Below are positions 8,505 to 61,545 of a stretch of 64,000 nt of DNA, piece after piece (positions within the stretch are counted from its first letter, which is position 1; every line of letters starts with the position of its first letter). This DNA comes from a virus (taxonomy: Duplodnaviria; Heunggongvirae; Uroviricota; Caudoviricetes): the IMG/VR virus record IMGVR_UViG_3300043467_001216; one strand, 5' to 3'. The notes below the pieces were generated by a model that saw only the letters and a list, made by a program, of their open reading frames with translations, had not been told where the DNA came from and searched no databases. The position numbers and the translations under genes were made by a program.

Positions 8505-9344
8505 ATGTTATCTTATATTGGTGGTAAAAGTAAAATTGGTAAATGGATAGTTCCATTCATACCTAAAGACATTGAAACGTATGTCGAACCATTTAGTGGT
8601 ATGTATTGGGTTTTCTTCAATATGGATTTGAAAGAGTATCCTAACCTAAAGAAAGTTGTTTACAACGACTTTAACCCACTAAATTATAACCTATTCAAGT
8701 GTGTTCAGAACCCCCAAGAGTTGTTGAAGGCAATCAATTCAATTGAGTGTCAACAATTCGGAGTTGAGGTAACACCACCACACTTAAAAGAACAATTTAT
8801 CAGCTTTCAGGCTGAAATTTTTAAGGAAGGTTTCAGCGTAGAACCTGGTGATTATGTGGTCGCGGCTAAGTATGTGTATGTGTTGACTCAGGTGTTCTCA
8901 GGTTCAAAACCTGAAACCTCATCATATATTGACTTGAAAGGTAAATACAAATCAAAGTATCTAACATTTAGAGATAAGTTAAGTAAACCTGATTGGGTAG
9001 AACATTTCTTAAAGATAACTCACGTTGAGAATATGGACTTTGCTGATGTAATAACTAAGTATGATGGTGAGAAAAGTTATTTCTATACTGACCCGCCATA
9101 TTGGAAGACTGAGAATTACTATTCAAATCACGACTTCGATAGAAACGACCACGAGAGATTGGCAAATACACTAAAAGGTATTCAAGGTAAGTTCTCATTA
9201 TCTTATTATGATTTTGAAATATTATCTGAGTGGTTTCCAAAAAATGAGTATATTTGGGAGAGTAAACTATTCGCCAAAGCGGCAGCAGCTAAAAAAGGTA
9301 AAACACAAACTATGGGTGAAGAGTTATTAATTATGAATTATTAA
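8505..9344 (+). CDS. DNA N6-adenine methyltransferase, D12 (Dam-like) class
   Basis: YIGGKSKI, EPFSGMYWVFF (SAM-binding) and YTDPPYW (DPPY catalytic motif). Confidence 0.85.
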   Translation: MLSYIGGKSKIGKWIVPFIPKDIETYVEPFSGMYWVFFNMDLKEYPNLKKVVYNDFNPLNYNLFKCVQNPQELLKAINSIECQQFGVEVTPPHLKEQFISFQAEIFKEGFSVEPGDYVVAAKYVYVLTQVFSGSKPETSSYIDLKGKYKSKYLTFRDKLSKPDWVEHFLKITHVENMDFADVITKYDGEKSYFYTDPPYWKTENYYSNHDFDRNDHERLANTLKGIQGKFSLSYYDFEILSEWFPKNEYIWESKLFAKAAAAKKGKTQTMGEELLIMNY

Positions 9345-12020: not shown

Positions 12021-12028
12021 TATATTTG
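12021..12028 (+). promoter_or_regulatory. Bacteroidetes-type -7 box
   Basis: TATATTTG only 4 nt before ATG 12033. Confidence 0.5.
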
Positions 12029-12032
12029 TGGT

Positions 12033-13772
12033 ATGGAAGTATTGTTAGACATTAAATCAGTTAAAAGTTCTGTAAATATATACAAGAATTATTGCCCATT
12101 AGAAATTGAAGATATTTTCGGGAAAGGGTCTTTTGATGCTAAAACGTTATATTCAGATAGTAAAAGACATACACATTACGAATTTGATAAATCTGAGGAA
12201 ATAAGTGGTTCTGACTTGTTTGACAAATATAAAAACGACCAATTATGTTCACCTTCAATAAATAGAAAAAGTGTTGAGGTATTAAAGAGTAATGAAAAGG
12301 TGACGATTAAAATTTATCGTTACAATTTACATAGAGAAATAGGGAAACCGTATTTCAGAAAATCAACCTCGTATGTTTCATTAACATATAATATTAAACG
12401 TAATCAGTTTTATTTCTTTCTTATTAACAATTATCACAAGAAAAGAAATTTTAGTAAAACACTTAGATGTCTTAGTCCGTACTTGATATTGAATCATTTC
12501 CGACACCACTTAGTTGATACTTTATCTAATCGTGATGATGTTGATAAAGTCTTTAATGTTTTTTTTAAAGGTATTTACGAAGATATGGTTAATTACGTTG
12601 ATTTACTTGAATACGTTGTTAAAAAACAAGGGTTTAAATTACCGAACAATTTTGATGTATTCGCTGATGCTATCGGTGGTAATGGTTTCTATGGTAGAAC
12701 ACCAACTAAATTAGATGGTAAGAGAAATGGGTTTAAATATATTGATACCATTATGGGTATTAACATTTTGAAGGGGGATAAACTTAGACGAGTATTACAT
12801 AAGGTATCAGGATTTAATTTGGGTTTATATTATGAAATGGCTAGTTACTTTAAGGATGATTTTATTTTATCAAGACCTGATGAGGACCTAATTAAAATCT
12901 TTAATTCAAATATTAGTTATTCATCATTAAATGGGAGTGTCTTGATGACTAGGCAAGAAAAAATTAATATGTATAATATTATTATGGAGTTGATTAATAC
13001 TAATAGTAGTGATTTGTATTCAATTTCTGACCATTTAAATATTAAAAATAAATTGTCTAAATACGAAACTGTGAAGTGGAAATCTAAAACATATGATGAG
13101 TTTGTTGATGAGCACGACGAATGGTCACGTAATTTAGATTCATACACTAAAGGTGTAACACAAAGAAGATATAATAAAGAGTTCCTTAATCACATTGAAA
13201 AACCGTTTGAAATGGATGGTATTAAATACTACCCTGTTGTTTTAAACAGTAGTGATGATTATAATAGAGAATCAACTGTTCAAACAAACTGTGTTAGAAC
13301 TTATATCCATTATGCTCATTCATTGATTGTGTCATTACGTAGAGATAGTAAAGACAGTTATGAAAGATTAACTATTGAGGTGAATTTAATACCTGATGAG
13401 GATGTTAGATTATTAAGAAAACAAACTAAGGCAAAGAGAAATTCAACACCTGACGATAGTTGGAGTTTAGCGACTCGTGAACTTGATGACAGAATTGAGT
13501 TTATTAATAAGAATGGGTTATTTACTTTACCTGAAATGGACGTAATTTATACACGAGGTTTACCTAGACACGCAAAGGTTGATAATAGACTGATTCACAA
13601 TGATGGTTACAGTTATTGGACTGTATGTTGGGATGATGAAGAAGTTGACTCTATTACTGGTCTGTCATATTTCCCTGTGATTGATGATGAGGTAACCCAA
13701 GATGAAATTGATTATTTATTAACTAATAACACTCCGAATTATGTTACGGAGGATGATGATTTACCATTATGA
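12033..13772 (+). CDS. PcfJ-like domain protein
   Basis: 579-aa ORF; TNCVRTYIHYAHSLIVSLRRDSKDSYERLTIEV resembles the PcfJ core (HCV..Y...I.SLR...TLE); recalled from memory, not searched. Confidence 0.6.
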   Translation: MEVLLDIKSVKSSVNIYKNYCPLEIEDIFGKGSFDAKTLYSDSKRHTHYEFDKSEEISGSDLFDKYKNDQLCSPSINRKSVEVLKSNEKVTIKIYRYNLHREIGKPYFRKSTSYVSLTYNIKRNQFYFFLINNYHKKRNFSKTLRCLSPYLILNHFRHHLVDTLSNRDDVDKVFNVFFKGIYEDMVNYVDLLEYVVKKQGFKLPNNFDVFADAIGGNGFYGRTPTKLDGKRNGFKYIDTIMGINILKGDKLRRVLHKVSGFNLGLYYEMASYFKDDFILSRPDEDLIKIFNSNISYSSLNGSVLMTRQEKINMYNIIMELINTNSSDLYSISDHLNIKNKLSKYETVKWKSKTYDEFVDEHDEWSRNLDSYTKGVTQRRYNKEFLNHIEKPFEMDGIKYYPVVLNSSDDYNRESTVQTNCVRTYIHYAHSLIVSLRRDSKDSYERLTIEVNLIPDEDVRLLRKQTKAKRNSTPDDSWSLATRELDDRIEFINKNGLFTLPEMDVIYTRGLPRHAKVDNRLIHNDGYSYWTVCWDDEEVDSITGLSYFPVIDDEVTQDEIDYLLTNNTPNYVTEDDDLPL

Positions 13773-27403: not shown

Positions 27404-28477
27404 ATGAGCCATTATATTATTAATAAACACGAATTTAAAGACGTTGTTAATAAAATTTACTTAGAAGAACAAAAAAACATTTTAAATGAGAAATGGTCTA
27501 AATTAAGTAAAGGGGAAAAAATATTCGTATTAGAATTTCTAAAAGTCATATATCCTGATAAATCTAAATTAATACAAGAATCTAAATGGTATAATACTTT
27601 AGGTGATATTGCCGGTATTTTTGACCCTACAGGTGTGATTGATGTTATCAACGGTATTAGTTATTGGAGACAAGATGATAAGTTATTTGCGTTACTGTCT
27701 TGGATTTCTGTAGTACCATTAATCGGTGACGTGATTGGTAAACCTGTTATTGGTGCATTAAAATTAGGTGGTGATACTGCTAAAATGTTTAAAGCCGCAG
27801 CTCTTGCGGGTGATGCTGCTAAAGTTGCTGAAACTGCAACTAAATCAGGTGGAGCTATTGGTAAATTTGTTAGTACTTCACCTACTTGGGGTGTTAAATT
27901 ATTAGAAATTTTAAAAAATGCGGGAAACAAAGTTCCAATACTAAGACGAATGTTTAAGTTAATTGAGGAATATGTTTCAGTGTTTGTAACCGCTAGTAAA
28001 GAAATGAAACTTGGTGCTGAGGTAACCAAAGGTATCGGTCTTGCGGAAAAGGAAACGTTAAAAAATACTTTTAGAGGGTTTAGAGATTTTGGTGGGTTTA
28101 AAAATAAATACCTCAAGTACATTTCATCTAAGGACGTATCACTCTGGAAAAAATTCACTGCGGGAGCACCACGAATATTTGGTGGTAATCCGGCTACTAG
28201 GTCATTAATGAGAAGAACTAAATGGTATTTAGGGTTTCTTGATTTCTTAGGTATTGGTGATTTTAAAACAACACCTGATGAATTAATGATTAAGTATCCG
28301 AATATAGAACAACAAGTTAATAAGTATAATCAAACTGAAAAGGCTCAACAAACATGGAATCAAGATTTTGGTTCAGGTGGTGATACACAAACCCAACAAA
28401 CAGATGGTGGGTTAAATACTCAAGATATTATGGGTATAAACCCGTTAGAAGTTTTTTTAAATCCTTTGTTTAAATAA
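27404..28477 (+). CDS. hypothetical protein
   Basis: 357-aa ORF; antisense 165-aa ORF rejected. Confidence 0.65.
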   Translation: MSHYIINKHEFKDVVNKIYLEEQKNILNEKWSKLSKGEKIFVLEFLKVIYPDKSKLIQESKWYNTLGDIAGIFDPTGVIDVINGISYWRQDDKLFALLSWISVVPLIGDVIGKPVIGALKLGGDTAKMFKAAALAGDAAKVAETATKSGGAIGKFVSTSPTWGVKLLEILKNAGNKVPILRRMFKLIEEYVSVFVTASKEMKLGAEVTKGIGLAEKETLKNTFRGFRDFGGFKNKYLKYISSKDVSLWKKFTAGAPRIFGGNPATRSLMRRTKWYLGFLDFLGIGDFKTTPDELMIKYPNIEQQVNKYNQTEKAQQTWNQDFGSGGDTQTQQTDGGLNTQDIMGINPLEVFLNPLFK

Positions 28478-29922
28478 TGAAAAAAATAGTAAGATTAAAT
28501 GAGAATCAAATGACCGATGTCATTAAACGAATGATAATGGAGTCAGGGATTCGTGATATTAATAAAATCGCTGAGAGATATCGAAAAGCTAAAATTTATT
28601 TTCATCAAGATTTGGATGGTGTAACAACTGCGATTGCGATGAAAGAATATTTAAAACAATATGGGATTGAAACCGTTGATTGTGAGGTAATACAATACGG
28701 TGATAAAGAATGGTCGATTAAAAAACCTGAAGGTAGTGGTGATGTTATGCCTGTATTGGTTGACTTTGCTCACGGTAAACCAATGTTTGTTATTCACACA
28801 GACCACCACGACACACAAGCGGGTGTTGAATCAGGGACTGCAACAAACTTTAAATCATCACGTTCAAATGTTGAAACTATATCACAATCAATATCACCAA
28901 AAGAATTATTCCCAAGTGATGATTTGTTATTAATCTCGACGGTTGACTCGGCGAATTTTGCACCAAACGATATCACAGTTGATGAGGTTAATAATTACAT
29001 CTTCAACTTAGATAAAGAAAAATCAGTTCCAAAAAACAAAATGGCTCTTGGTTTGACGATTAATAAATTATTATTGGCGTTTAAAAACAAACCTGATTTC
29101 TTAGAAGAATTGGTTATGGAATCAACACCATCTTTACTTAATATCTTAACTAACATTAAGAGAATTATGAAAGAGAAGGGGTTTGCGTCAGTTGATGTTC
29201 TACAACAAAATAGAGACAACTACGTTCAATCAATGAAGAATCATCCTAACGTTAAAGTTATGGATAATATCATTGTTCAATACGGTGGTGGTAATATGAT
29301 GAAACCTGGTTCTTATGATAGGTATACACCATTTAAAAACAATCCTGAAGCTGACTTTATAGTTATTGCTTGGCCGTTGGGGTTAGTTCAAGCGTCTTGT
29401 AATCCATTCAAAAAAGAGAGAGCATTGAAAGGTGTTAACTTAGGTGAGGTTAAAGATGAGGTGTTATCTAAATGGGAAACACAATTAAAACAAAAAGAAA
29501 TTCCATTATCTACAATCAAATGGGTATCTGAGAACAAATTAAATACTGAGTCAGTTGGTTTTACGTTTAAAGATTTTGAAGCATTGTATGGTGAAAAATT
29601 TAGTAAGATTAACAACGGACCTGAATTATTAAACATTATTAGTAATATAATGCAAAGACATTATAATAGTTTAAGTGATAAACAAAAATCTATTATGGAG
29701 AAAGTAACTGTTAGTGCTTGGGATATAATTCAAGCTAATAGTGGTGGACACAAATGTATTACGAATATATCAGGTCTTAGTTATTTAGGTAAGAACCCTC
29801 AGAAATTATCAGGAGGTGGAAGTTACCAAAAAAGTGAAGATGATTCACCATCGGTTAAGTTTACAAAAATGATTCAAAACGAATTTGTAAGAGTATTACA
29901 ACAAAAAATACAAGAAGGTTAA
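28477..29922 (+). CDS. DHH/DHHA1 family phosphoesterase (NrnA/RecJ-like)
   Basis: HQDLDGVTTA, VLVDF, VIHTDHHD (DHH motif) and C-terminal NSGGHKC (GGGH-like DHHA1 motif). Confidence 0.75.
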   Translation: MKKIVRLNENQMTDVIKRMIMESGIRDINKIAERYRKAKIYFHQDLDGVTTAIAMKEYLKQYGIETVDCEVIQYGDKEWSIKKPEGSGDVMPVLVDFAHGKPMFVIHTDHHDTQAGVESGTATNFKSSRSNVETISQSISPKELFPSDDLLLISTVDSANFAPNDITVDEVNNYIFNLDKEKSVPKNKMALGLTINKLLLAFKNKPDFLEELVMESTPSLLNILTNIKRIMKEKGFASVDVLQQNRDNYVQSMKNHPNVKVMDNIIVQYGGGNMMKPGSYDRYTPFKNNPEADFIVIAWPLGLVQASCNPFKKERALKGVNLGEVKDEVLSKWETQLKQKEIPLSTIKWVSENKLNTESVGFTFKDFEALYGEKFSKINNGPELLNIISNIMQRHYNSLSDKQKSIMEKVTVSAWDIIQANSGGHKCITNISGLSYLGKNPQKLSGGGSYQKSEDDSPSVKFTKMIQNEFVRVLQQKIQEG

Positions 29923-30260
29923 AATTCTATTCGGTCGTCAAGTTTAATACCTAAACGTTTGCATGTACCACCTTTAACTTCTAAAATCATATCACCTTCA
30001 CCACAATAGTTTCCACAATCTTTTGATTTACAAGGGGGACAATTGTGGTGGATGTTTGATATCATACCATCTTTAATAAAGATTATATCCAAAGGTATCA
30101 CACAATTTTTCATCCAAAAACAATGGTCGGCATCATCCATTAAAAATAACATACCTTGATTTGGTGATGTAAACTTTTTTCCCATCATACCGTTTGATTT
30201 ATCCTTGGGGGTAATCATAGTTTTTACTACAAACTTGTTATTATTAATTCGAATATTCAT
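29919..30260 (-). CDS. DUF192 family protein
   Basis: GMMGKK...GMLFLMD....FWMKNCVIPLDIIFI..G.I matches the DUF192/COG1430 pattern. Confidence 0.75.
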   Translation of the reverse strand: MNIRINNNKFVVKTMITPKDKSNGMMGKKFTSPNQGMLFLMDDADHCFWMKNCVIPLDIIFIKDGMISNIHHNCPPCKSKDCGNYCGEGDMILEVKGGTCKRLGIKLDDRIEF

Positions 30261-30294: not shown

Positions 30295-30302
30295 TATATT
30301 TG
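30295..30302 (+). promoter_or_regulatory. Bacteroidetes-type -7 box
   Basis: TATATTTG 5 nt before the smpB ATG. Confidence 0.55.
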
Positions 30303-30307
30303 TTACT

Positions 30308-30742
30308 ATGAAATCGAGAGTGAATATAGTTAACAAGAAAGTTAAGTTTGAATACTTTTTCGTTGAGACATTTGTCGTTGGGGTTAAACTACAGGGTTCT
30401 GAGGTTAAGTCAATCAGTGACTCAAAAGTTTCAATGACTGATACGTATTGTTACTTTAAGAATGGTGAGTTATATGTTAAAGGGTTAAACATTGCTAGTT
30501 CTAATGTGTCATACGCTCACGAACCTATGAGGGAACGTAAATTGTTAATGAAGAAGAAAGAATTGCGTAAACTTGAGAACGAATTAATTAATGGGTTAAC
30601 GATTGTTCCGTATAGATTGTATCGTAATGAGACCGGGTTGATTAAGATGGAGATTGTATTAGCCAAAGGTAAGAAGTTGTGGGATAAGAGAGATTCGATT
30701 AAAGAACGAGATATAAATAGAGAATTAAAACGAGGTCTATGA
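30308..30742 (+). CDS. smpB: SsrA-binding protein SmpB
   Basis: full-length similarity to bacterial SmpB as recalled: NKK.KFEYF..E.F..G..LQGSEVKS, RKLLM...EL.KL and AKGKKLWDKRDSIKERD tail. Confidence 0.9.
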   Translation: MKSRVNIVNKKVKFEYFFVETFVVGVKLQGSEVKSISDSKVSMTDTYCYFKNGELYVKGLNIASSNVSYAHEPMRERKLLMKKKELRKLENELINGLTIVPYRLYRNETGLIKMEIVLAKGKKLWDKRDSIKERDINRELKRGL

Positions 30743-30978
30743 CAAAGGTATTAAAAGGTAAAATAGTCCACCAAGGTGGTGAACTAATGGTGGAACATTC
30801 ACCAAAGAAAATATTTGCAGAATTAAAAGGGGAGTCAATTGAAAAAGTCTTTTACAAGTATGATATTCTTAACCCCTTCACTGAACACAATTTAAAGGAG
30901 GGTGATGAGGTTGAATTTGTGTTTGAATTATATATTGATAATGGAGGTTCATTTAAATTTTGTGAAATAGTAAAATAG
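30739..30978 (+). CDS. hypothetical protein
   Basis: ATGA overlap with smpB. Confidence 0.55.
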   Translation: MTKVLKGKIVHQGGELMVEHSPKKIFAELKGESIEKVFYKYDILNPFTEHNLKEGDEVEFVFELYIDNGGSFKFCEIVK

Positions 30979-31151: not shown

Positions 31152-31430
31152 ATGGTGATTAATAGTTTTCATAACATTAAAATAGAACACGAAAAGTTTG
31201 GAGTAGTATTAGATGAGACATTCATTGATGGAACACAATTCAAATTATTCCTTAAAGCGATTCACGGGTGTTTAGTTGAGAAAGAGGATTTGACATTCTT
31301 CAACGGGACTGATTTTTTAGTTCACGTCCCATTTAAACATTTGGTTGATTCGATAATCAAAACAGGTAAGACCGAGTATACCTCATCTGACCACGTTAAA
31401 AGTAAAATCGAAGCATTGGTAACAAAATGA
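31152..31430 (+). CDS. hypothetical protein
   Basis: 92-aa ORF. Confidence 0.55.
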   Translation: MVINSFHNIKIEHEKFGVVLDETFIDGTQFKLFLKAIHGCLVEKEDLTFFNGTDFLVHVPFKHLVDSIIKTGKTEYTSSDHVKSKIEALVTK

Positions 31431-35947: not shown

Positions 35948-35955
35948 TATATTTG
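35948..35955 (+). promoter_or_regulatory. Bacteroidetes-type -7 box
   Basis: TATATTTG 4 nt before ATG 35960. Confidence 0.5.
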
Positions 35956-35959
35956 TTTT

Positions 35960-36286
35960 ATGGATGCGAAAGGAAAATATAAGTTAGCCGAATTGCTTGT
36001 TGATAAGACAAAATTAGCCGTAAATTATGAAGGGATTAACTTCATCCAATTCAGAATTGAATTTCCATTTTTAAAAGGTGGTGTTTGTAAGGATTACTAT
36101 TTAAAACTTGAGTTGGAAAAAAATTCTTGGAATTTTGGAATGCCACCTAATTATCACTTAATCACTTACTTAGAAACTTTATTCAGAATTAAAGATGAAT
36201 CAATAATAAACGAGATTCGTGAATTATATCTTGATATATTTGAAGAAAGAATTAAAAATTTACAAGTATATCTATTGACACATTGA
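35960..36286 (+). CDS. hypothetical protein
   Basis: 108-aa ORF. Confidence 0.55.
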   Translation: MDAKGKYKLAELLVDKTKLAVNYEGINFIQFRIEFPFLKGGVCKDYYLKLELEKNSWNFGMPPNYHLITYLETLFRIKDESIINEIRELYLDIFEERIKNLQVYLLTH

Positions 36287-52676: not shown

Positions 52677-53063
52677 ATGAGTAGAGTTAATTTGATTGCA
52701 TCAACAGGGTTAATCTTCAATGAAGATAAGTCAATGGTATTAGGTGTGTCACGTAAAGACGATAAAACTAAATTTGGTTTACCTGGTGGTAAGGTTGATG
52801 AAGGTGAAACAATGTATGAAGCATTGGTTAGAGAGTTGAAAGAAGAAACAGGATTGGATGTTATTAAGGCGGTCCCGATATATTTCAGAGAAGATGGTAT
52901 ATACGTGACCGTGGTTTATTTGATTAGTGAATATTCAGGTGATATATATACAGAAGAGGCCGGTGTCGTTAAATGGGTTACATTTGAAGAATTGAAACAC
53001 GGGGCGTTCTCAGAATACAATACAATGTTGGAGGAACATTTGAAATTTATAAATTATATATGA
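52677..53063 (+). CDS. Nudix hydrolase
   Basis: Nudix box GLPGGKVDEGETMYEALVRELKEETGL. Confidence 0.85.
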   Translation: MSRVNLIASTGLIFNEDKSMVLGVSRKDDKTKFGLPGGKVDEGETMYEALVRELKEETGLDVIKAVPIYFREDGIYVTVVYLISEYSGDIYTEEAGVVKWVTFEELKHGAFSEYNTMLEEHLKFINYI

Positions 53064-53818
53064 ATATGAAGAAATTAATTTATTTTACATTAGGTAATAA
53101 TCCAAATTACTTAAAATTGGCTGATATGTGTATTAACAGTTTATATCATAATGGTTATGATGGTGATTTTTTATTTATAACTGACTTAAAGAATGAGATT
53201 TTAAACCAAATCAATTTTAAAACTCAACCTTATTTTTTAGAATTAAAAGAATCTTCATTGTTAGAATCGTCGGCGAATAAACTTAAAGTTTATTCATTTA
53301 ATAAAATAAATGAATATGATAAAATTATATTTTCAGATTTAGATATTTTATGGGTGTCGAACCCTGAAATAATTTTTAATCTTATTGATGAGGATAAATT
53401 TTATATGAGTAATGAAGAAGGGTTAATGACTGATGAATTATGGGGTGGTTTGTTGTTAACTGATACTGAAAAAATTGAAATTGACCAATTGAAAATTTTT
53501 GGGTTAAATTGTGGTCTATTTGCGTTTAATAACAAAATGATACCGTATTTAGAGCAGGTTGATTTATTTTTGAATAATAATTTAGAGTTACAAAATGTGT
53601 GTTTAGAACAACCATTTTTGAATGTTTATGTTTATCGTAATAATTTATATAATAATAAATTGAATGGTTTGGTTAGTCATAAAGGTTATCATTTTGTTAA
53701 TTCACCTTTAGATTTAATCAAATATGATGGTGTTGTTTTACATTTTGCAGGTGGTCCTGGTAATTATGATTTTAAATATGAAAAAATGTTGATTTATTTT
53801 AACGAATATTTTAAATAA
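53060..53818 (+). CDS. glycosyltransferase (GT8-like, DxD)
   Basis: IIFSDLDILW DxD motif; overall nucleotide-diphospho-sugar transferase layout. Confidence 0.6.
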   Translation: MNMKKLIYFTLGNNPNYLKLADMCINSLYHNGYDGDFLFITDLKNEILNQINFKTQPYFLELKESSLLESSANKLKVYSFNKINEYDKIIFSDLDILWVSNPEIIFNLIDEDKFYMSNEEGLMTDELWGGLLLTDTEKIEIDQLKIFGLNCGLFAFNNKMIPYLEQVDLFLNNNLELQNVCLEQPFLNVYVYRNNLYNNKLNGLVSHKGYHFVNSPLDLIKYDGVVLHFAGGPGNYDFKYEKMLIYFNEYFK

Positions 53819-53830
53819 ATAACGTGTTAT

Positions 53831-54031
53831 ATGTTGGTTGAGGGGGAATATAATTATGCTAAACTAATTACTATTGAAGGTGATGTTGTCGCGGTTGCGG
53901 TTATGGAAGTAGGTTCAGAGAATGAAGCTGGTGTTGTTAATTGGGCTTTAGATAATGATTTCACCTTAGTTAAGATTGACGAACAAGAGTTTTTGGATTT
54001 TGAAAGTGATTATGATATTGAACTTGAATAA
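53831..54031 (+). CDS. hypothetical protein
   Basis: 66-aa ORF. Confidence 0.5.
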   Translation: MLVEGEYNYAKLITIEGDVVAVAVMEVGSENEAGVVNWALDNDFTLVKIDEQEFLDFESDYDIELE

Positions 54032-54069
54032 AATTTTCACTCAGGTGTTGTGCATATCCAAAAGATAGT

Positions 54070-54077
54070 TATATTTG
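54070..54077 (+). promoter_or_regulatory. Bacteroidetes-type -7 box driving the sRNA
   Basis: TATATTTG with no ORF downstream. Confidence 0.5.
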
Positions 54078-54083
54078 TAGTGT

Positions 54084-54306
54084 GTGAGTGTCACACAGGA
54101 TGTCAGAACTCCTAACTTACAATCTGACCATTAAGTATCAGGTGAGATGATACGGGTTGATTACCCCAACTTAGTAAGTGAAACCATCAGGATGTCAGAA
54201 CTCCTAGTTCACAATCTGACCACTAAGAATCGGGTGAGGCGGTTCGGGTTAAACACCTCAATCCAAAGGATGAAATTTAAACCCCCAAGTACATTGGGGG
54301 TTTTTT
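54084..54306 (+). ncRNA. candidate phage sRNA: 5' hairpin, two tandem 92-nt pseudoknot-like units, intrinsic terminator
   Basis: no ORF on either strand; units start at 54096 and 54188 (46 of the first 52 nt identical); AGGA/TCCT interleaved with GTCAGA/TCTGAC; terminator CCCCCAA-gtaca-TTGGGGG followed by T6; 5' end approximate. Confidence 0.6.
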
Positions 54307-54316
54307 GTTTTATCTA

Positions 54317-54331
54317 ATATTTATTGATATG
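54317..54331 (+). promoter_or_regulatory. ATATTTATTGATATG motif containing the start codon
   Basis: identical to 15892 and 36986. Confidence 0.5.
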
Positions 54332-54805
54332 AAAATAATATTAACTGAGAATAAGTTAGATAAAATAATTGAAAAATATGGTATAGTTAAAACCATTAGA
54401 AATATTGGTGGGTATAAAAATTTTGATAAAATATACCCTGATTATTTTTATTCAGGTGATACATCACAATGGGATAGAGAACGTGTTATTAATTTTTTAA
54501 ATGAATGTGTTGAGGTTAATAACAGAATAGAAAATGAATCAAGTATTTATCTTCACGACTATTGGGAAGATATCTTATATCAAAGTTGGAGTGATTATAA
54601 TGAAGATGCTGGTAGAGAGTTTCAGTATGAATCTAGAATAATGTCTATTAGTACTGATTTTGCACATACTGAAGTGTGGCAATATGATGAGGAAGGTGAA
54701 ATGTTTGATGAAGCTTACGATTATAATGATATACCTTTGAATAGATTGGAAACTAGGTTTTTAAGTAAAATATTTGGGCAACTTTGGGGGGTATTTAAAT
54801 TATGA
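54329..54805 (+). CDS. hypothetical acidic protein
   Basis: N-terminus MKIILTENKLDKIIEKY; start inside the conserved 15-mer. Confidence 0.6.
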   Translation: MKIILTENKLDKIIEKYGIVKTIRNIGGYKNFDKIYPDYFYSGDTSQWDRERVINFLNECVEVNNRIENESSIYLHDYWEDILYQSWSDYNEDAGREFQYESRIMSISTDFAHTEVWQYDEEGEMFDEAYDYNDIPLNRLETRFLSKIFGQLWGVFKL

Positions 54806-55278
54806 AGTTATTAAAATTATTATCGACATTAATTACTGAGAGTAGGTTATTTGACAGATTTGTTGTCAACGGTCTTGTTGTTGATGTAACCAGCACTCGT
54901 GAGTCTGATGTTGCGGTAATGGATAATACAACATTCGGTAGAGTTCCCAAAGAAGAAATATTAGAATCAATGAGAGATATCATTGAAGTTATTGTAACAC
55001 AAGGATTGGTGGTATTAGATACTTGTGAAAGAAGATGTGGTTTATTAGTAAGTGATTATTCAATGGGGTTCGATTACCAACTTTGGGTAACATTGAAGAC
55101 TAATAAATTAGAATTGAAAATTAACACATCAATCAAACATCCAAAACAATTATTTAACGATAAACACAAAACAAGACGTGTTATCGTAACTAGAGACGGT
55201 GAGACCGTTATCAGAGAATCATTAGAACATTATCGTTCAGTTAAAATCGGAAAAAAAATCGTTTATTTTATAGACTAA
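54802..55278 (+). CDS. hypothetical protein
   Basis: ATGA overlap. Confidence 0.55.
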   Translation: MKLLKLLSTLITESRLFDRFVVNGLVVDVTSTRESDVAVMDNTTFGRVPKEEILESMRDIIEVIVTQGLVVLDTCERRCGLLVSDYSMGFDYQLWVTLKTNKLELKINTSIKHPKQLFNDKHKTRRVIVTRDGETVIRESLEHYRSVKIGKKIVYFID

Positions 55279-55337
55279 ATCGTAAATTATCTATAACTTT
55301 AGTCATAAAAGAAATTTTAGATTAAATACTAACGATT

Positions 55338-55535
55338 ATGAATAAGCATAGAATTAACATTATCAACAAACAGAGTAGTAGGTTGATACATAAGAACCAC
55401 TTAGATAGTTGTTTAGAACATTTATCAATCGCTCACTTTCACTTATCAAAACATCTTAAAGGTAAGAATGATATGGGGTTATTGACTAACATATTGAACT
55501 CATCTTTTGAGATAAAAAAACATTTAAAACGATGA
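55338..55535 (+). CDS. hypothetical protein
   Basis: 65-aa ORF. Confidence 0.45.
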   Translation: MNKHRINIINKQSSRLIHKNHLDSCLEHLSIAHFHLSKHLKGKNDMGLLTNILNSSFEIKKHLKR

Positions 55536-55958
55536 ATGGATAAAAAGATTGGATTTACGTGTTCCTGTTTTGATTTATTTCATGCGGGACATATTATGAT
55601 GCTTAAAGAAGCTAAAAGTGTTTGTGATTACTTAATAGTTGGTTTACAGAGTGACCCCACGTTAGACAGACCTGAGAAGAATAAACCTGTTCAAAGTATA
55701 GTTGAAAGATTTATTCAATTGGATGCTTGTAAGTATGTTGATGAGATTGTGGTTTATGCGACAGAAAAAGATTTAATGGACGTATTGTTATCGTATCCAA
55801 TCAATGTTAGGATTGTTGGGGATGAATACGCTGAAGTTAATTTTACAGGTAAAAACTTACAACATATTGAAATTTATTATAATACAAGACGACATTCATT
55901 TTCAACAACAGAATTAAGAAAACGAGTAATTGAATTATCAAATGGACAAAGTAAGTGA
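55536..55958 (+). CDS. cytidylyl/adenylyltransferase (RfaE domain II / TagD-like)
   Basis: CSCFDLFHAGHIMMLKEAK (HxGH motif), LIVGLQSD, VDEIVVY and FSTTELRKRV match the glycerol-3-P cytidylyltransferase / heptose-1-P adenylyltransferase family. Confidence 0.8.
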   Translation: MDKKIGFTCSCFDLFHAGHIMMLKEAKSVCDYLIVGLQSDPTLDRPEKNKPVQSIVERFIQLDACKYVDEIVVYATEKDLMDVLLSYPINVRIVGDEYAEVNFTGKNLQHIEIYYNTRRHSFSTTELRKRVIELSNGQSK

Positions 55959-56478
55959 TATATTGGTTAAACAATTTTCCTTGTCGGATGAGTTTAAAGA
56001 TTACATTCAAGATAATATTAATAATTCAGGTTGTTCTAACATTGAATTTTTAGAATTTAATAATGGTTTGTTTGGTGTTTCATTACACGATGGTATAATA
56101 CTAAATGATACGTTGTTAAAATATCCATTATCGTTATGTATTTTCATAATACTACACGAATTAACACACCAATTACAATTTAATAAATATGGTGTTGACA
56201 AGATGTATCTTTATTTAAATGATGTGAGTGATGATGAGGTTAGTGAATTCATTTTAAAACAAGAAATCGTTGCTGATAGATTGGCATCACTGAAAATACG
56301 TCAATTACAAAAGAAAGGTTTAATTAGTAAAGATTTTACACCAATACAGATTCATAAAAAGGTCGACCCAAAACTCTTTAAACAAAAGATTGTAAATTAT
56401 AGAAACCTGATGAGAGAACAAAACGTTAGAACACCTGACGATGTTAGTTGTTTTTTTAAATCATTAATATTATATTAG
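55942..56478 (+). CDS. HExxH zinc-metallopeptidase-like protein
   Basis: FIILHELTHQLQF; start moved from TTG 55930 to ATG 55942. Confidence 0.5.
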   Translation: MDKVSDILVKQFSLSDEFKDYIQDNINNSGCSNIEFLEFNNGLFGVSLHDGIILNDTLLKYPLSLCIFIILHELTHQLQFNKYGVDKMYLYLNDVSDDEVSEFILKQEIVADRLASLKIRQLQKKGLISKDFTPIQIHKKVDPKLFKQKIVNYRNLMREQNVRTPDDVSCFFKSLILY

Positions 56479-56482
56479 TAAA

Positions 56483-57196
56483 ATGAAAAAGAAAATTGTT
56501 GTATTCACAGGTGCTGGTGTTTCAAGAGAAAGTGGTGTCTTGACATTTAGAGATAGTGTGGATGGGTTATGGGAGAATCATAGTATTGATGATGTTTGTA
56601 CACCTTCAGGATGGAAAAAAGACCGTGAGAAGGTTTTGAATTTTTATAACGATAGACGAAGACAATTACCTACGGTTGAACCTAACTCAGCCCACACAGG
56701 TTTGGTTAAGTTAGAGGACAAATATGACGTAACAATCGTTACCCAAAATGTTGATGACCTACACGAAAGAGCGGGTTCATCTAAGATATTACATTTACAC
56801 GGTGAGTTGACTAAAGCCAGAGGTGCGATGTATAGTCATAAGACAAGTCCATTGGATAATATCGTGGTGATTGGTTATAATGATATTAACATTGGTGATA
56901 AGTGTGAGATAACAGGTTCACAGTTGAGACCCCACATTGTTTGGTTTGAAGAGATGCCATTCAACGTCGAGGAAAGTTATGACGCAATAACCGAATCTGA
57001 TGTGTTAATCATTATCGGAACTAGTTTGATGATTGGTTACACATTAAATCTATTATCAAGTGTTAGTGATGAGTGTAAGATTTATTATATTGACCCCCAA
57101 CCAAGTAGGTATTTGGACCATTTAGGTAAAGATATTACTTACATTGAGAAACCGGCAACGGAAGGTGTTGAATTAATTTTAAATGAATTGTTATGA
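56483..57196 (+). CDS. cobB: Sir2-family NAD-dependent protein deacylase (CobB type)
   Basis: VVFTGAGVSRESGVLTFRD, QNVDDLHERAG, HLHGE, RPHIVWFEE and IIIGTS are collinear with CobB; most zinc-module cysteines are absent. Confidence 0.9.
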   Translation: MKKKIVVFTGAGVSRESGVLTFRDSVDGLWENHSIDDVCTPSGWKKDREKVLNFYNDRRRQLPTVEPNSAHTGLVKLEDKYDVTIVTQNVDDLHERAGSSKILHLHGELTKARGAMYSHKTSPLDNIVVIGYNDINIGDKCEITGSQLRPHIVWFEEMPFNVEESYDAITESDVLIIIGTSLMIGYTLNLLSSVSDECKIYYIDPQPSRYLDHLGKDITYIEKPATEGVELILNELL

Positions 57197-59926: not shown

Positions 59927-60012
59927 AGTCAGGTAATGCGTAATGGGAAAACGGTTATCTCATCCAACTAAAAAGGGTTGCATCGTTGTGGGTTCGAGTC
60001 CCACCCTGGCTA
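59927..60012 (+). tRNA. tRNA-like RNA 1 (non-canonical core)
   Basis: acceptor AGTCAGG/CCTGGCT (U3-G70); perfect T arm GTGGG-TTCGAGT-CCCAC; D-loop-like TAATGGGAAAA; ATGCG/TGCAT helix replaces the D and anticodon stems; no CCA encoded. Confidence 0.45.
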
Positions 60013-60272
60013 CAACTTCGCTGGTTAATGGGGGTAGTTTGCATCTTGCAACTCAAGTGGTTAAGTTCGGCGTTAAGATATTAATCCTACTATGGTGATT
60101 GATTGAAATGTACGGCTCACACCAACCTCTGCAAGTTAAAACAAACTGTACTACACATTCAAAGATGGGTTACACAATAGAATTTATTCTATAAGATGCT
60201 GTGTCAAATTGAGATATGTGTAAGTATAACATCTGAAGTTTGCCTCAATGGTATTTTTAGTAAGATGTATTT

Positions 60273-60371
60273 AGTCAGGTGGCGTAATGGTAAAAGCGTT
60301 GGTCAGTGGGTTTAAACACCTAACGGTAAAAATGGGTACCAGATATACAGGTTCGAATCCTGTCCTGACTA
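60273..60371 (+). tRNA. tRNA-like RNA 2 (99 nt; 34-nt domain where the anticodon loop should be)
   Basis: AGTCAGG/CCTGACT acceptor; T arm ACAGG-TTCGAAT-CCTGT; TTGGT/ACCAG helix closes 34 nt; discriminator A. Confidence 0.5.
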
Positions 60372-60389
60372 CTGACAATAAAACTTTGG

Positions 60390-60442
60390 GGTCAGGGTTT
60401 TGTTGGCACTGAAAGGTGTGTGTTTTCAACGGTTCGAGTCCG
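60390..60442 (+). pseudogene. 3'-truncated tRNA-like fragment
   Basis: GGTCAGG 5' strand and CGG-TTCGAGT-CCG T-arm remnant but no 3' acceptor strand; abuts element 3. Confidence 0.4.
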
Positions 60443-60556
60443 AGTCAGGTGGCGGAATTGGTAGACGCTAACGGTGGTAAGTGTGATAGTCAGAGCTCGG
60501 GAACTCCTATCAAAAAGTTTGGTTCACACATACAGGTTCAAGTCCTGTCCTGACTA
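60443..60556 (+). tRNA. tRNA-like RNA 3 (114 nt; Leu-type D arm)
   Basis: AGTCAGG-TG-GCGGAATTGGTAGACGC is the class II tRNA-Leu 5' part; T arm ACAGG-TTCAAGT-CCTGT; core closed by GTGTGA/TCACAC; discriminator A. Confidence 0.55.
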
Positions 60557-60569
60557 CTAAAAATAAGAT

Positions 60570-60800
60570 ATGAATAATAGAGAACAAAAATTGATTGATT
60601 TAATGTTTGAAATGGTGTTAGTGACAACAAACGACCCCGTATTTTGTAAAAGACCAAGAGGTGAAAGAATGGCTTGGGTTGCAGATAATTTGAGGGGTTC
60701 GGGATTTGATACACATCCAATCGGAATGAGTTGGGGGGTTTTGGTTGACTCTTCATTCAGGGACACAATTGATGTTAAAACAGAAAATTTAGATAATTAA
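60570..60800 (+). CDS. hypothetical protein embedded in the RNA array
   Basis: 76-aa ORF between tRNA-like elements with normal amino-acid composition. Confidence 0.5.
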   Translation: MNNREQKLIDLMFEMVLVTTNDPVFCKRPRGERMAWVADNLRGSGFDTHPIGMSWGVLVDSSFRDTIDVKTENLDN

Positions 60801-60805
60801 CTAAC

Positions 60806-60949
60806 AGTCAGGTGGTGGAATGGTAGACGTGTAATGGGTGATTTGATTAATGGGGCCGTGAGACATCACATTAAATATGTTGACCATCCCCAAGAACCGA
60901 ATAAAATCGGTCTTTTCAAATCGTACAGGTTCGAATCCTGTCCTGACTG
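60806..60949 (+). tRNA. tRNA-like RNA 4 (144 nt; branched domain replaces the anticodon arm)
   Basis: AGTCAGG/CCTGACT; GGTGGAATGGTAGACG D region; 9-bp helix GTGATTTGA/TCAAATCGT abuts the T arm; inner helices TGGGG/CCCCA, GTGA/TCAC, ACCGA/TCGGT; discriminator G. Confidence 0.5.
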
Positions 60950-61119
60950 CTGAATTAGCCCTCTGGTGGTGCACCGCTAAGGAACGAAGATAGAGATTAC
61001 AGATATGGGTTGAAATAAAAAGACCTTCGGGTTTACACATATGTTGGCGTGGACGCTCTCCGAATCGTATGTCGGCATAGTTTGTGTGTTCTAGGGATAA
61101 TTTAAAAACACACATTTTT
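60950..61119 (+). ncRNA. structured spacer
   Basis: AGACC-TTCG-GGTTT (UUCG tetraloop hairpin); GTGTGTT/AACACAC 7-bp stem; GGTG-gtg-CACC; only a minus-strand shadow ORF. Confidence 0.3.
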
Positions 61120-61235
61120 AGTCAGGTGGCGGAAGGGATTGAGGTAACTCGGTCGTTGGTAGACGCACATATCCATACAGGGATGATGCAGTACTGTATT
61201 ACTGTGTCTTACAAGTTCGAATCTTGTCCTGACTA
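61120..61235 (+). tRNA. tRNA-like RNA 5 (116 nt; 21-nt hairpin inserted in the D loop)
   Basis: GGCGGAA[GG GATTGAG GTAA CTCGGTC G]TTGGTAGACGC; T arm ACAAG-TTCGAAT-CTTGT (compensated); TATCC-ATACAG-GGATG stem with 6-nt loop; variable hairpin CAGTA/TACTG. Confidence 0.55.
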
Positions 61236-61276
61236 CAAAAAATAACGAAGGTATTGTTTAATTAAATAAAAAAACA

Positions 61277-61284
61277 TATCTTTG
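61277..61284 (+). promoter_or_regulatory. Bacteroidetes-type -7 box
   Basis: TATCTTTG 12 nt before tRNA-like RNA 6. Confidence 0.45.
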
Positions 61285-61296
61285 AAATGTTAATAT

Positions 61297-61411
61297 AGAT
61301 AGGTGGCGGATGGGTAGACGCAGAGGTGAGGGGATATAGTAACACTCTGAAAGTAGCAGTCTCGTTACGTCCTACGGTGAAATCGAACAGGTTCGAATCC
61401 TGTCCTATCTA
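61297..61411 (+). tRNA. tRNA-like RNA 6 (115 nt; possible Leu-GAG with expanded loop)
   Basis: acceptor AGATAGG/CCTATCT (compensated relative to the others); D arm GCG-GATGGGTAGA-CGC; CAGAG/CTCTG closes a 19-nt loop that begins GU-GAG-G; T arm ACAGG-TTCGAAT-CCTGT. Confidence 0.55.
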
Positions 61412-61461
61412 CACTATAATGAATTTGGGTAACGATTTAGATACAAGAATTCATATAGTTA

Positions 61462-61531
61462 AGCGGAGTAGTGTAATTGGTAACATATTGGATTGTCTCC
61501 TTTGATGTGGGTTCGAGTCCCATCGCCGCAA
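61462..61531 (+). tRNA. tRNA-like RNA 7 (70 nt; poor anticodon stem)
   Basis: D arm GTGT-AATTGGTA-ACAT; T arm GTGGG-TTCGAGT-CCCAT; acceptor has two mismatches; the anticodon region TTGGA-TTGTCTC-CTTTG pairs poorly. Confidence 0.45.
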
Positions 61532-61545
61532 CTAAAATTTAAATT

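Follow-up and report, generated by a model that had tools for sequence, protein, structure and literature searches.

The window, by which we mean the whole 64-kb stretch of phage DNA analysed here, encodes a genuine, full-length SmpB with the fold of that protein, maintained by strong purifying selection. Very probably this protein is a functional, canonical SmpB that acts as the tmRNA cofactor in trans-translation and has as its RNA partner a tmRNA lying outside the window. The gene is placed as follows.

30308..30742, plus strand: smpB coding sequence, 144 aa, full-length, with the C-terminal tail GKKLWDKRDSIKERDINRELKRGL (Pfam, NCBIfam, PDB alignment, AF2/Foldseek and dN/dS)

An initial annotation, made from the letters of the sequence, had described this open reading frame as collinear with bacterial SmpB, basic tail included, and the profile and structure comparisons agree with that description. 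The Pfam SmpB profile PF01668 matches ORF 30308-30742 with 151.9 bits (cut-off 27; E 1.4e-44). The alignment to SmpB HMMs proposed in the annotation exceeded both NCBIfam equivalog cut-offs over the full length of the protein (TIGR00086, 155.1 bits against 119.1; NF003843, 150.3 bits against 130). The profile matches span residues 3-142 of 144. Comparison with PDB sequences by phmmer found the phage protein collinear end to end with solved SmpBs, again through the basic tail; the best-quoted alignments are to Thermotoga maritima 7LJP (E 2e-33) and Thermus thermophilus 1J1H. The AF2 model (mean pLDDT 74) places strands at residues 14-123 and a C-terminal helix at 124-143, and all 17 of its Foldseek matches in the PDB at E<=0.001 are SmpB. 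Length class, fold and motifs are therefore those of bacterial SmpB (T. maritima 7LJP, T. thermophilus 1J1H and 4V8Q, E. coli 6Q97), from which the window protein differs in being phage-encoded, in its 33-45% identity to the solved structures, and in two substituted residues discussed below. The 120 closest database relatives listed are 62-98% identical to it and 102-170 aa long (mostly 138-148); all come from environmental assemblies and bear either no protein name or just that of SsrA-binding protein.

We aligned window-type SmpBs with tmRNA-adjacent SmpBs, with SmpBs of more distant phages and with two bacterial proteins, those of E. coli and T. thermophilus; the T. thermophilus sequence used agrees with the phmmer alignment. 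All canonical SmpB motifs, from the N-terminal N-K-K..E-Y through the tail, are kept in this alignment. The tail motif GKK-x-(H/Y/W)-DKR-x-x-IK, present in the window protein as GKKLWDKRDSIKERD, is retained in all aligned phage clades. This motif is needed for tagging, as the roles assigned to its residues in the E. coli and T. thermophilus literature describe. A check of contact residues, also proposed in the initial annotation, gave a divided result: the tail motif is intact, but the equivalents of two E. coli residues reported to bind tmRNA are substituted, E31 by V and R45 by S.

These substitutions could be read as the mark of an inhibitory SmpB, one that would block trans-translation by competing with the host protein, either for tmRNA or for the A site of the ribosome, for example to prevent the tagging of phage proteins or to disable a host response. 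We regard this as very unlikely. Nothing specific speaks for it; the two substitutions are compatible with it, as is the sensitivity of phages to the state of trans-translation, reported in a review as cited in PMC7162821. Against it, the entire tail that productive A-site engagement requires (GKK, the aromatic residue, DKR and IK) is intact and conserved, and the closest paralogous clade adjoins phage tmRNA genes, which implies productive pairing. Further, E31 is equally unconserved in most phage SmpBs that adjoin a tmRNA, so the position does not separate the groups. Nei-Gojobori dN/dS between the window SmpB and its relatives was 0.03-0.07 (loci L003-L008) and 0.05 (L011), equal to or lower than the 0.08-0.10 found in the tmRNA-linked SmpB clade. 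A decaying SmpB remnant was ruled out by the values of 0.03-0.07.

Upstream of the gene lies a promoter-like element.

30295..30302, plus strand: TAnnTTTG box, in this instance TATATTTG, 5 nt upstream of the smpB ATG (sequence and comparative spacing)

By the features of that promoter class, its start-site distance included, we take the TAnnTTTG box to be the Bacteroidota-type -7 promoter element. The host-type box that the initial annotation had seen 5 nt before the ATG was found again, and its reading as a promoter of smpB's own gains from comparison: of 56 distinct sequences upstream of SmpB, 46 have a TAnnTTTG box 4-5 nt (6-7 nt in two) before the ATG. The proteins in this set are 54-100% identical, and the genes lie in two genomic contexts unrelated to each other. 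Sequence beyond the box is unrelated between many of these loci, and a terminator-like hairpin usually precedes it. The TATATTTG octamer occurs 17 times in the whole window against 9.1 expected, 15 of them on the plus strand. The predicted promoter therefore has good comparative support, and smpB would form its own transcription unit, consisting of a hairpin (in most relatives), the box, 4-5 nt and the ATG. Given the distance of 4-5 nt between box and start codon, the mRNA is probably leaderless or nearly so. The same octamer also stands 4 nt before the ATGs of the ORFs at 12033 and 35960 (at 12021-12035 and 35948-35962), so leaderless-type starts may be common in this phage.

The surroundings of smpB are made up of the following genes.

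30739..30978, plus strand: 79-aa ORF, lineage-restricted, without a Pfam or NCBIfam match, in ATGA overlap with smpB
29919..30260, minus strand: DUF192 gene (PF02643, E 6.8e-26), the divergent upstream neighbour and left border of the smpB slot
28477..29922, plus strand: DHH-like gene of 481 aa (weak Pfam DHH match), the synteny anchor
31152..31430, plus strand: 92-aa ORF (o92), right border of the slot, conserved downstream of DUF192 with or without SmpB

The coupling of smpB to the 79-aa ORF by an ATGA overlap, noted at the outset, is confirmed at 30739-30742, where the ATG of the ORF (30739-30741) overlaps the TGA of smpB (30740-30742). Relatives whose SmpB is at least 95% identical keep the overlap with a 79-aa ORF that is just 72-91% identical; at 78% SmpB identity the ORF is displaced by about 140 nt downstream and is 51% identical, and it was not found in more distant syntenic relatives or in tmRNA-linked loci. 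By these comparisons it is a real, fast-evolving, lineage-restricted gene. A role as a conserved partner of SmpB was ruled out by this divergence, displacement and absence.

Gene order in the window (methyltransferase, a 357-aa gene, DHH, DUF192 on the minus strand, SmpB and, further on, o92) is conserved in relatives with SmpBs 78%, 69% and 58% identical to that of the window. Homologues of the smpB-adjacent DHH-like gene occur in at least 598 IMG/VR stretches and, among GenBank phages, only in LR745206 (634,780 bp) and LR756502, both published by Al-Shayeb et al. 2020 (PMC7162821) in their survey of huge phages. Among the best 80 of the at least 598 loci, the slot between DHH-DUF192 and o92 holds SmpB in 34 and lacks it in 32, where absence was scored only if 1.5 kb or more of sequence followed; the other 14 allowed no call. 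A GOLLD RNA is found at the slot in at least four of the best 80 loci and a tmRNA in none of them. Since the slot is occupied in some DHH loci and empty in others, and a second slot exists elsewhere, smpB behaves as an autonomous, movable cassette with at least two alternative slots across phages.

The window has a G+C content of 32%, and most of its large proteins lack a PHROG or Pfam family. Exact-protein look-ups placed its genes on two JGI contigs (250,222 and 225,927 bp) and one ENA contig (195,267 bp), whose coordinates show that the genome continues upstream of the window for at least 235 kb. The phage genome is therefore at least 300 kb, of which the window is about one fifth. Assemblies of this phage from several samples all end between about 62.1 and 64.55 kb of the window; just past it there may be a repeat, a hypervariable stretch or the end of the genome. 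At 52677-57196, genes with Pfam NUDIX, CTP_transf_like (nucleotidyltransferase) and SIR2 matches lie amid ORFs without matches and may form an NAD-related module. A Bacteroidota host is proposed on two grounds only, the promoter type and the Bacteroidetes best hits in the files of PMC7162821. Matching a 17-mer of the phage tmRNAs described below to GTDB genomes gave seven chance matches and no tmRNA.

No tmRNA was detected in the 64 kb, as the initial annotation had stated. ARAGORN reported none in the window, its sole call being a tRNA-Thr at 61462-61532, and Rfam gave no tmRNA-family row at gathering score or at E<=10, with three tRNA matches at gathering score. A structural scan confined acceptor-plus-T-arm modules to 59.9-61.5 kb and found no tmRNA-sized module with G3:U70 in the window. 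A search with an nhmmer profile of 22 distinct related-phage tmRNAs had no match there either, and the next 10 kb upstream yielded none. Homologues of GOLLD, tmRNA, p455, p272, ClpC and Rnl1, which form an island in related phages, are likewise absent from the window. The further step, from none in 64 kb to an orphan SmpB, is not supported. As the window is about one fifth of the genome and relatives encode tmRNAs that ARAGORN misses, orphan status cannot be concluded.

Those tmRNAs came to light in related phages. ARAGORN, run within 10 kb on either side of SmpB in 30 IMG/VR relatives, reported no tmRNA. A structural scan for a 7-bp acceptor with G3:U70 plus a T arm with a TTCRA loop recovered modules of 384-413 nt in four relatives (L013, L015, L017 and L018) whose SmpBs are 62-65% identical to that of the window. 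The modules are convergent with SmpB and lie 90-500 nt downstream of it, and Rfam RF00023 identifies them as tmRNA at 65.3-67.9 bits (gathering score 47). GOLLD RNA, at more than 300 bits in Rfam, lies directly upstream of SmpB in the tmRNA-confirmed relatives. Searches with a conserved 17-mer and later patterns extended the family to 114 loci (nhmmer E<1e-20) before the last two pattern scans, all on viral contigs of 28-38% G+C and with RNAs of 380-415 nt. An entire phage tmRNA family, confirmed by Rfam, thus goes unreported by ARAGORN. Representative positions in the relatives are these.

L013:10921-11336, minus strand: tmRNA
L015:10523-10909, minus strand: tmRNA
L184, L196 and L290: further tmRNA loci
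L013:9518-9924: GOLLD
L015:9022-9417: GOLLD
L174:24875-25280 (LR745206): GOLLD
L290:7751-8157: GOLLD
L444:6785-7192: GOLLD

The recurrent island runs from Rnl1 through GOLLD, SmpB where present, the convergent tmRNA, p455 and p272 to a ClpC-like ATPase, and most tmRNA loci adjoin p455-p272-ClpC. SmpB is inside the island in roughly one seventh of the loci; otherwise GOLLD abuts the tmRNA or SmpB is absent within the several kb available. The window SmpB, between DUF192 and the 79-aa ORF and o92, is outside the GOLLD-SmpB-tmRNA arrangement. A tmRNA is present on each of the three contigs of 282-322 kb that share an amidase gene with the window (60-65% identity); in the two of 318-322 kb for which both positions are known, about 150-170 kb separate it from the amidase.

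Several features of these loci are worth recording in their own right. GOLLD (RF02032, up to 322 bits) adjoins SmpB and/or tmRNA in relatives. A ClpC-like AAA+ unfoldase of about 680 aa lies 3-5 kb from the phage tmRNA in most loci (for example L290:14229-16274 and L237:7062-9107, both on the minus strand), and ClpP is encoded near tRNAs in L615 (3053-3772), suggesting that these phages bring tagging plus unfolding or degradation parts. Sub-threshold matches to the Y RNA-like family YrlA (41 and 26 bits; gathering score 69) are positioned between tRNA-like elements and GOLLD at L013:8700-8795 and 8890-8998. At L179:6297-7576 unrelated sequence stands in place of the 5' acceptor strand of the tmRNA, and a 276-aa ORF with, by eye, a GIY-YIG-like N-terminus stands between tmRNA and SmpB, which looks like a homing-endonuclease insertion.

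In bacteria, the beta-barrel body of SmpB binds the tRNA-like domain of tmRNA, and the tail enters the empty mRNA channel of a stalled ribosome. By analogy, the body of the phage SmpB would bind the tRNA-like domain of alanyl-tmRNA, and its basic tail would enter the mRNA channel left empty when a ribosome stalls on a truncated mRNA; the ribosome would be freed and the nascent chain tagged. Ribosomes would in this way stay available in the infected cell while host and phage mRNAs get cut up, and SmpB would be part of the translation-support repertoire of a huge phage.

Which tmRNA it would partner is a closer question. We slightly favour a phage tmRNA like those of the relatives (380-415 nt, G3:U70, adjoining a ClpC-like gene), which has about an even chance of being the partner; for a host tmRNA the chance is somewhat below even. 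A tmRNA 150-170 kb from the amidase, as in the large contigs, would in this phage lie beyond the sequence covered here. Contigs with a tmRNA and no SmpB (e.g., 3300042869_000878 and 3300008261_004773) occur in samples that contain this phage or relatives of the window type, which is no more than suggestive.

The competing account is that the phage has no tmRNA at all and that its SmpB loads or stabilises host tmRNA, topping up the cofactor after host expression is shut off. It differs from the preferred explanation in the tmRNA partner only, and we put its probability somewhat below even. The window and its 10-kb extension are without a tmRNA, and purifying selection on SmpB is strong even where no tmRNA is a neighbour. 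In LR745206 (635 kb), the closest complete relative in GenBank, SmpB lies at 333 kb and is accompanied in the genome by about 60 tRNAs and GOLLD, but no tmRNA was revealed by ARAGORN, the clade nhmmer profile, the G3:U70 structural scan or Rfam over 1-594,500 (94%). The largest close syntenic relative, a 186.8-kb contig with a 78% identical SmpB, is absent from three complete tmRNA pattern scans that together cover about 83% of known family members. Searches with the tmRNA-neighbour proteins p455 and ClpC found no cluster on contigs of the lengths known for this phage, which is a weak negative. A P0396 search ended at a contig of 306.7 kb that carries GOLLD and 15 tRNAs; its 20-kb locus has no tmRNA, and no tie of the contig to this phage was found. 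Set against this account, the tmRNA search reached the 64-kb window and 10 kb more, out of a genome whose size is 300 kb or above. In this group, moreover, tmRNAs are common and mostly stand apart from SmpB, and the SmpB-less tmRNA contigs in the same samples would fit a location elsewhere in the genome. The initial annotation had named action on host tmRNA as one of two options for the phage protein; because LR745206 has SmpB without a detectable tmRNA, that option stays live alongside the phage tmRNA that we slightly favour.

A different partner had been suggested within the window itself, in the form of anticodon-deficient tRNA-like elements at 59.9-61.5 kb, and these exist as described.

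59927-61412, plus strand: six tRNA-like elements of 86, 99, 114, 144, 116 and 115 nt (sequence and structure)

The elements share the acceptor AGUCAGG/CCUGACU, which varies in two of them, and all but one have A73. Their D arm is tRNA-Leu-like, and the T arm reads ACAGG-UUCGAAU-CCUGU. Acceptor, D and T arms are near-invariant, and hypervariable cores of 20-90 nt take the place of a normal anticodon arm. ARAGORN calls none of the six, Rfam scores four as tRNA at 30-50 bits, and blastn of the array against GenBank phages gave no match. The elements could be processed scaffolds for variable RNAs.

The initial annotation had linked SmpB to this array speculatively, and the comparison with relatives weakens the link. 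That SmpB pairs with these anticodon-less RNAs instead of a tmRNA is highly improbable. Intact acceptor and T arms without a normal anticodon loop in all six elements would suit it, as would family members 2-4 kb from SmpB in L021 and L025. The same family, however, also occurs in phages with both SmpB and a canonical tmRNA (L013/L253, L290 and L229), so the array is unlikely to replace tmRNA. The 3:70 pair is U3:A70 (AGUCAGG/CCUGACU), A3:U70 (AGAUAGG/CCUAUCU) or, in one element, U3-G70, and never G3:U70; the elements keep a tRNA-Leu-like D stem, whereas tmRNA, the natural ligand of SmpB, has none; and the array lies 29 kb from smpB in the window. Also highly improbable is that the tmRNA was lost and the conserved, mobile, leaderless SmpB cassette repurposed for a non-tmRNA ligand, with the array RNAs as candidate. 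If true, a repurposed SmpB would represent a ribosome-directed function outside classical trans-translation. The preferred reading remains a canonical cofactor of a tmRNA.

The novelty of a phage SmpB is less than the initial annotation's interest in it would suggest: huge phages were reported to carry tmRNAs and SmpB by Al-Shayeb et al. 2020 (PMC7162821), who list both among translation genes without describing their linkage. Our tblastn search found SmpB in 67 phage records, all Lak megaphages among them. Known huge-phage SmpBs (LR745206, LR756501-4 and Lak MK250015-29) resemble that of the window in their similar size and their location near tRNA-rich regions, yet are only 38-47% identical to it. 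The GOLLD-SmpB-tmRNA-ClpC order seen in the relatives goes beyond the description in PMC7162821. Phage G and Mar_Mega_1 are large phages with tmRNAs found by ARAGORN, and SmpB is mentioned in neither text (PMC12484599, PMC9723777); unlike theirs, the tmRNA family of the relatives is missed by ARAGORN, and the window has none. Compared with GOLLD (RF02032) islands beside phage tRNAs, the relatives have SmpB directly downstream of GOLLD and tRNA genes, whereas the window has no GOLLD and its SmpB sits between DUF192 and the 92-aa ORF.

Taken by itself, the gene adds one more huge phage with ribosome-rescue parts, known since 2020. Of wider consequence is the failure of ARAGORN, the standard tool of the field, to detect a large phage tmRNA family, on account of which published tallies of phage tmRNAs probably fall short. 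The recurrent island of SmpB, tmRNA, GOLLD and a ClpC-like ATPase hints at a phage-borne tag-and-unfold module. Finally, since SmpB moves between loci as a cassette and at least one complete genome carries it without a detectable tmRNA, the action of a phage protein on host tmRNA becomes a testable idea.
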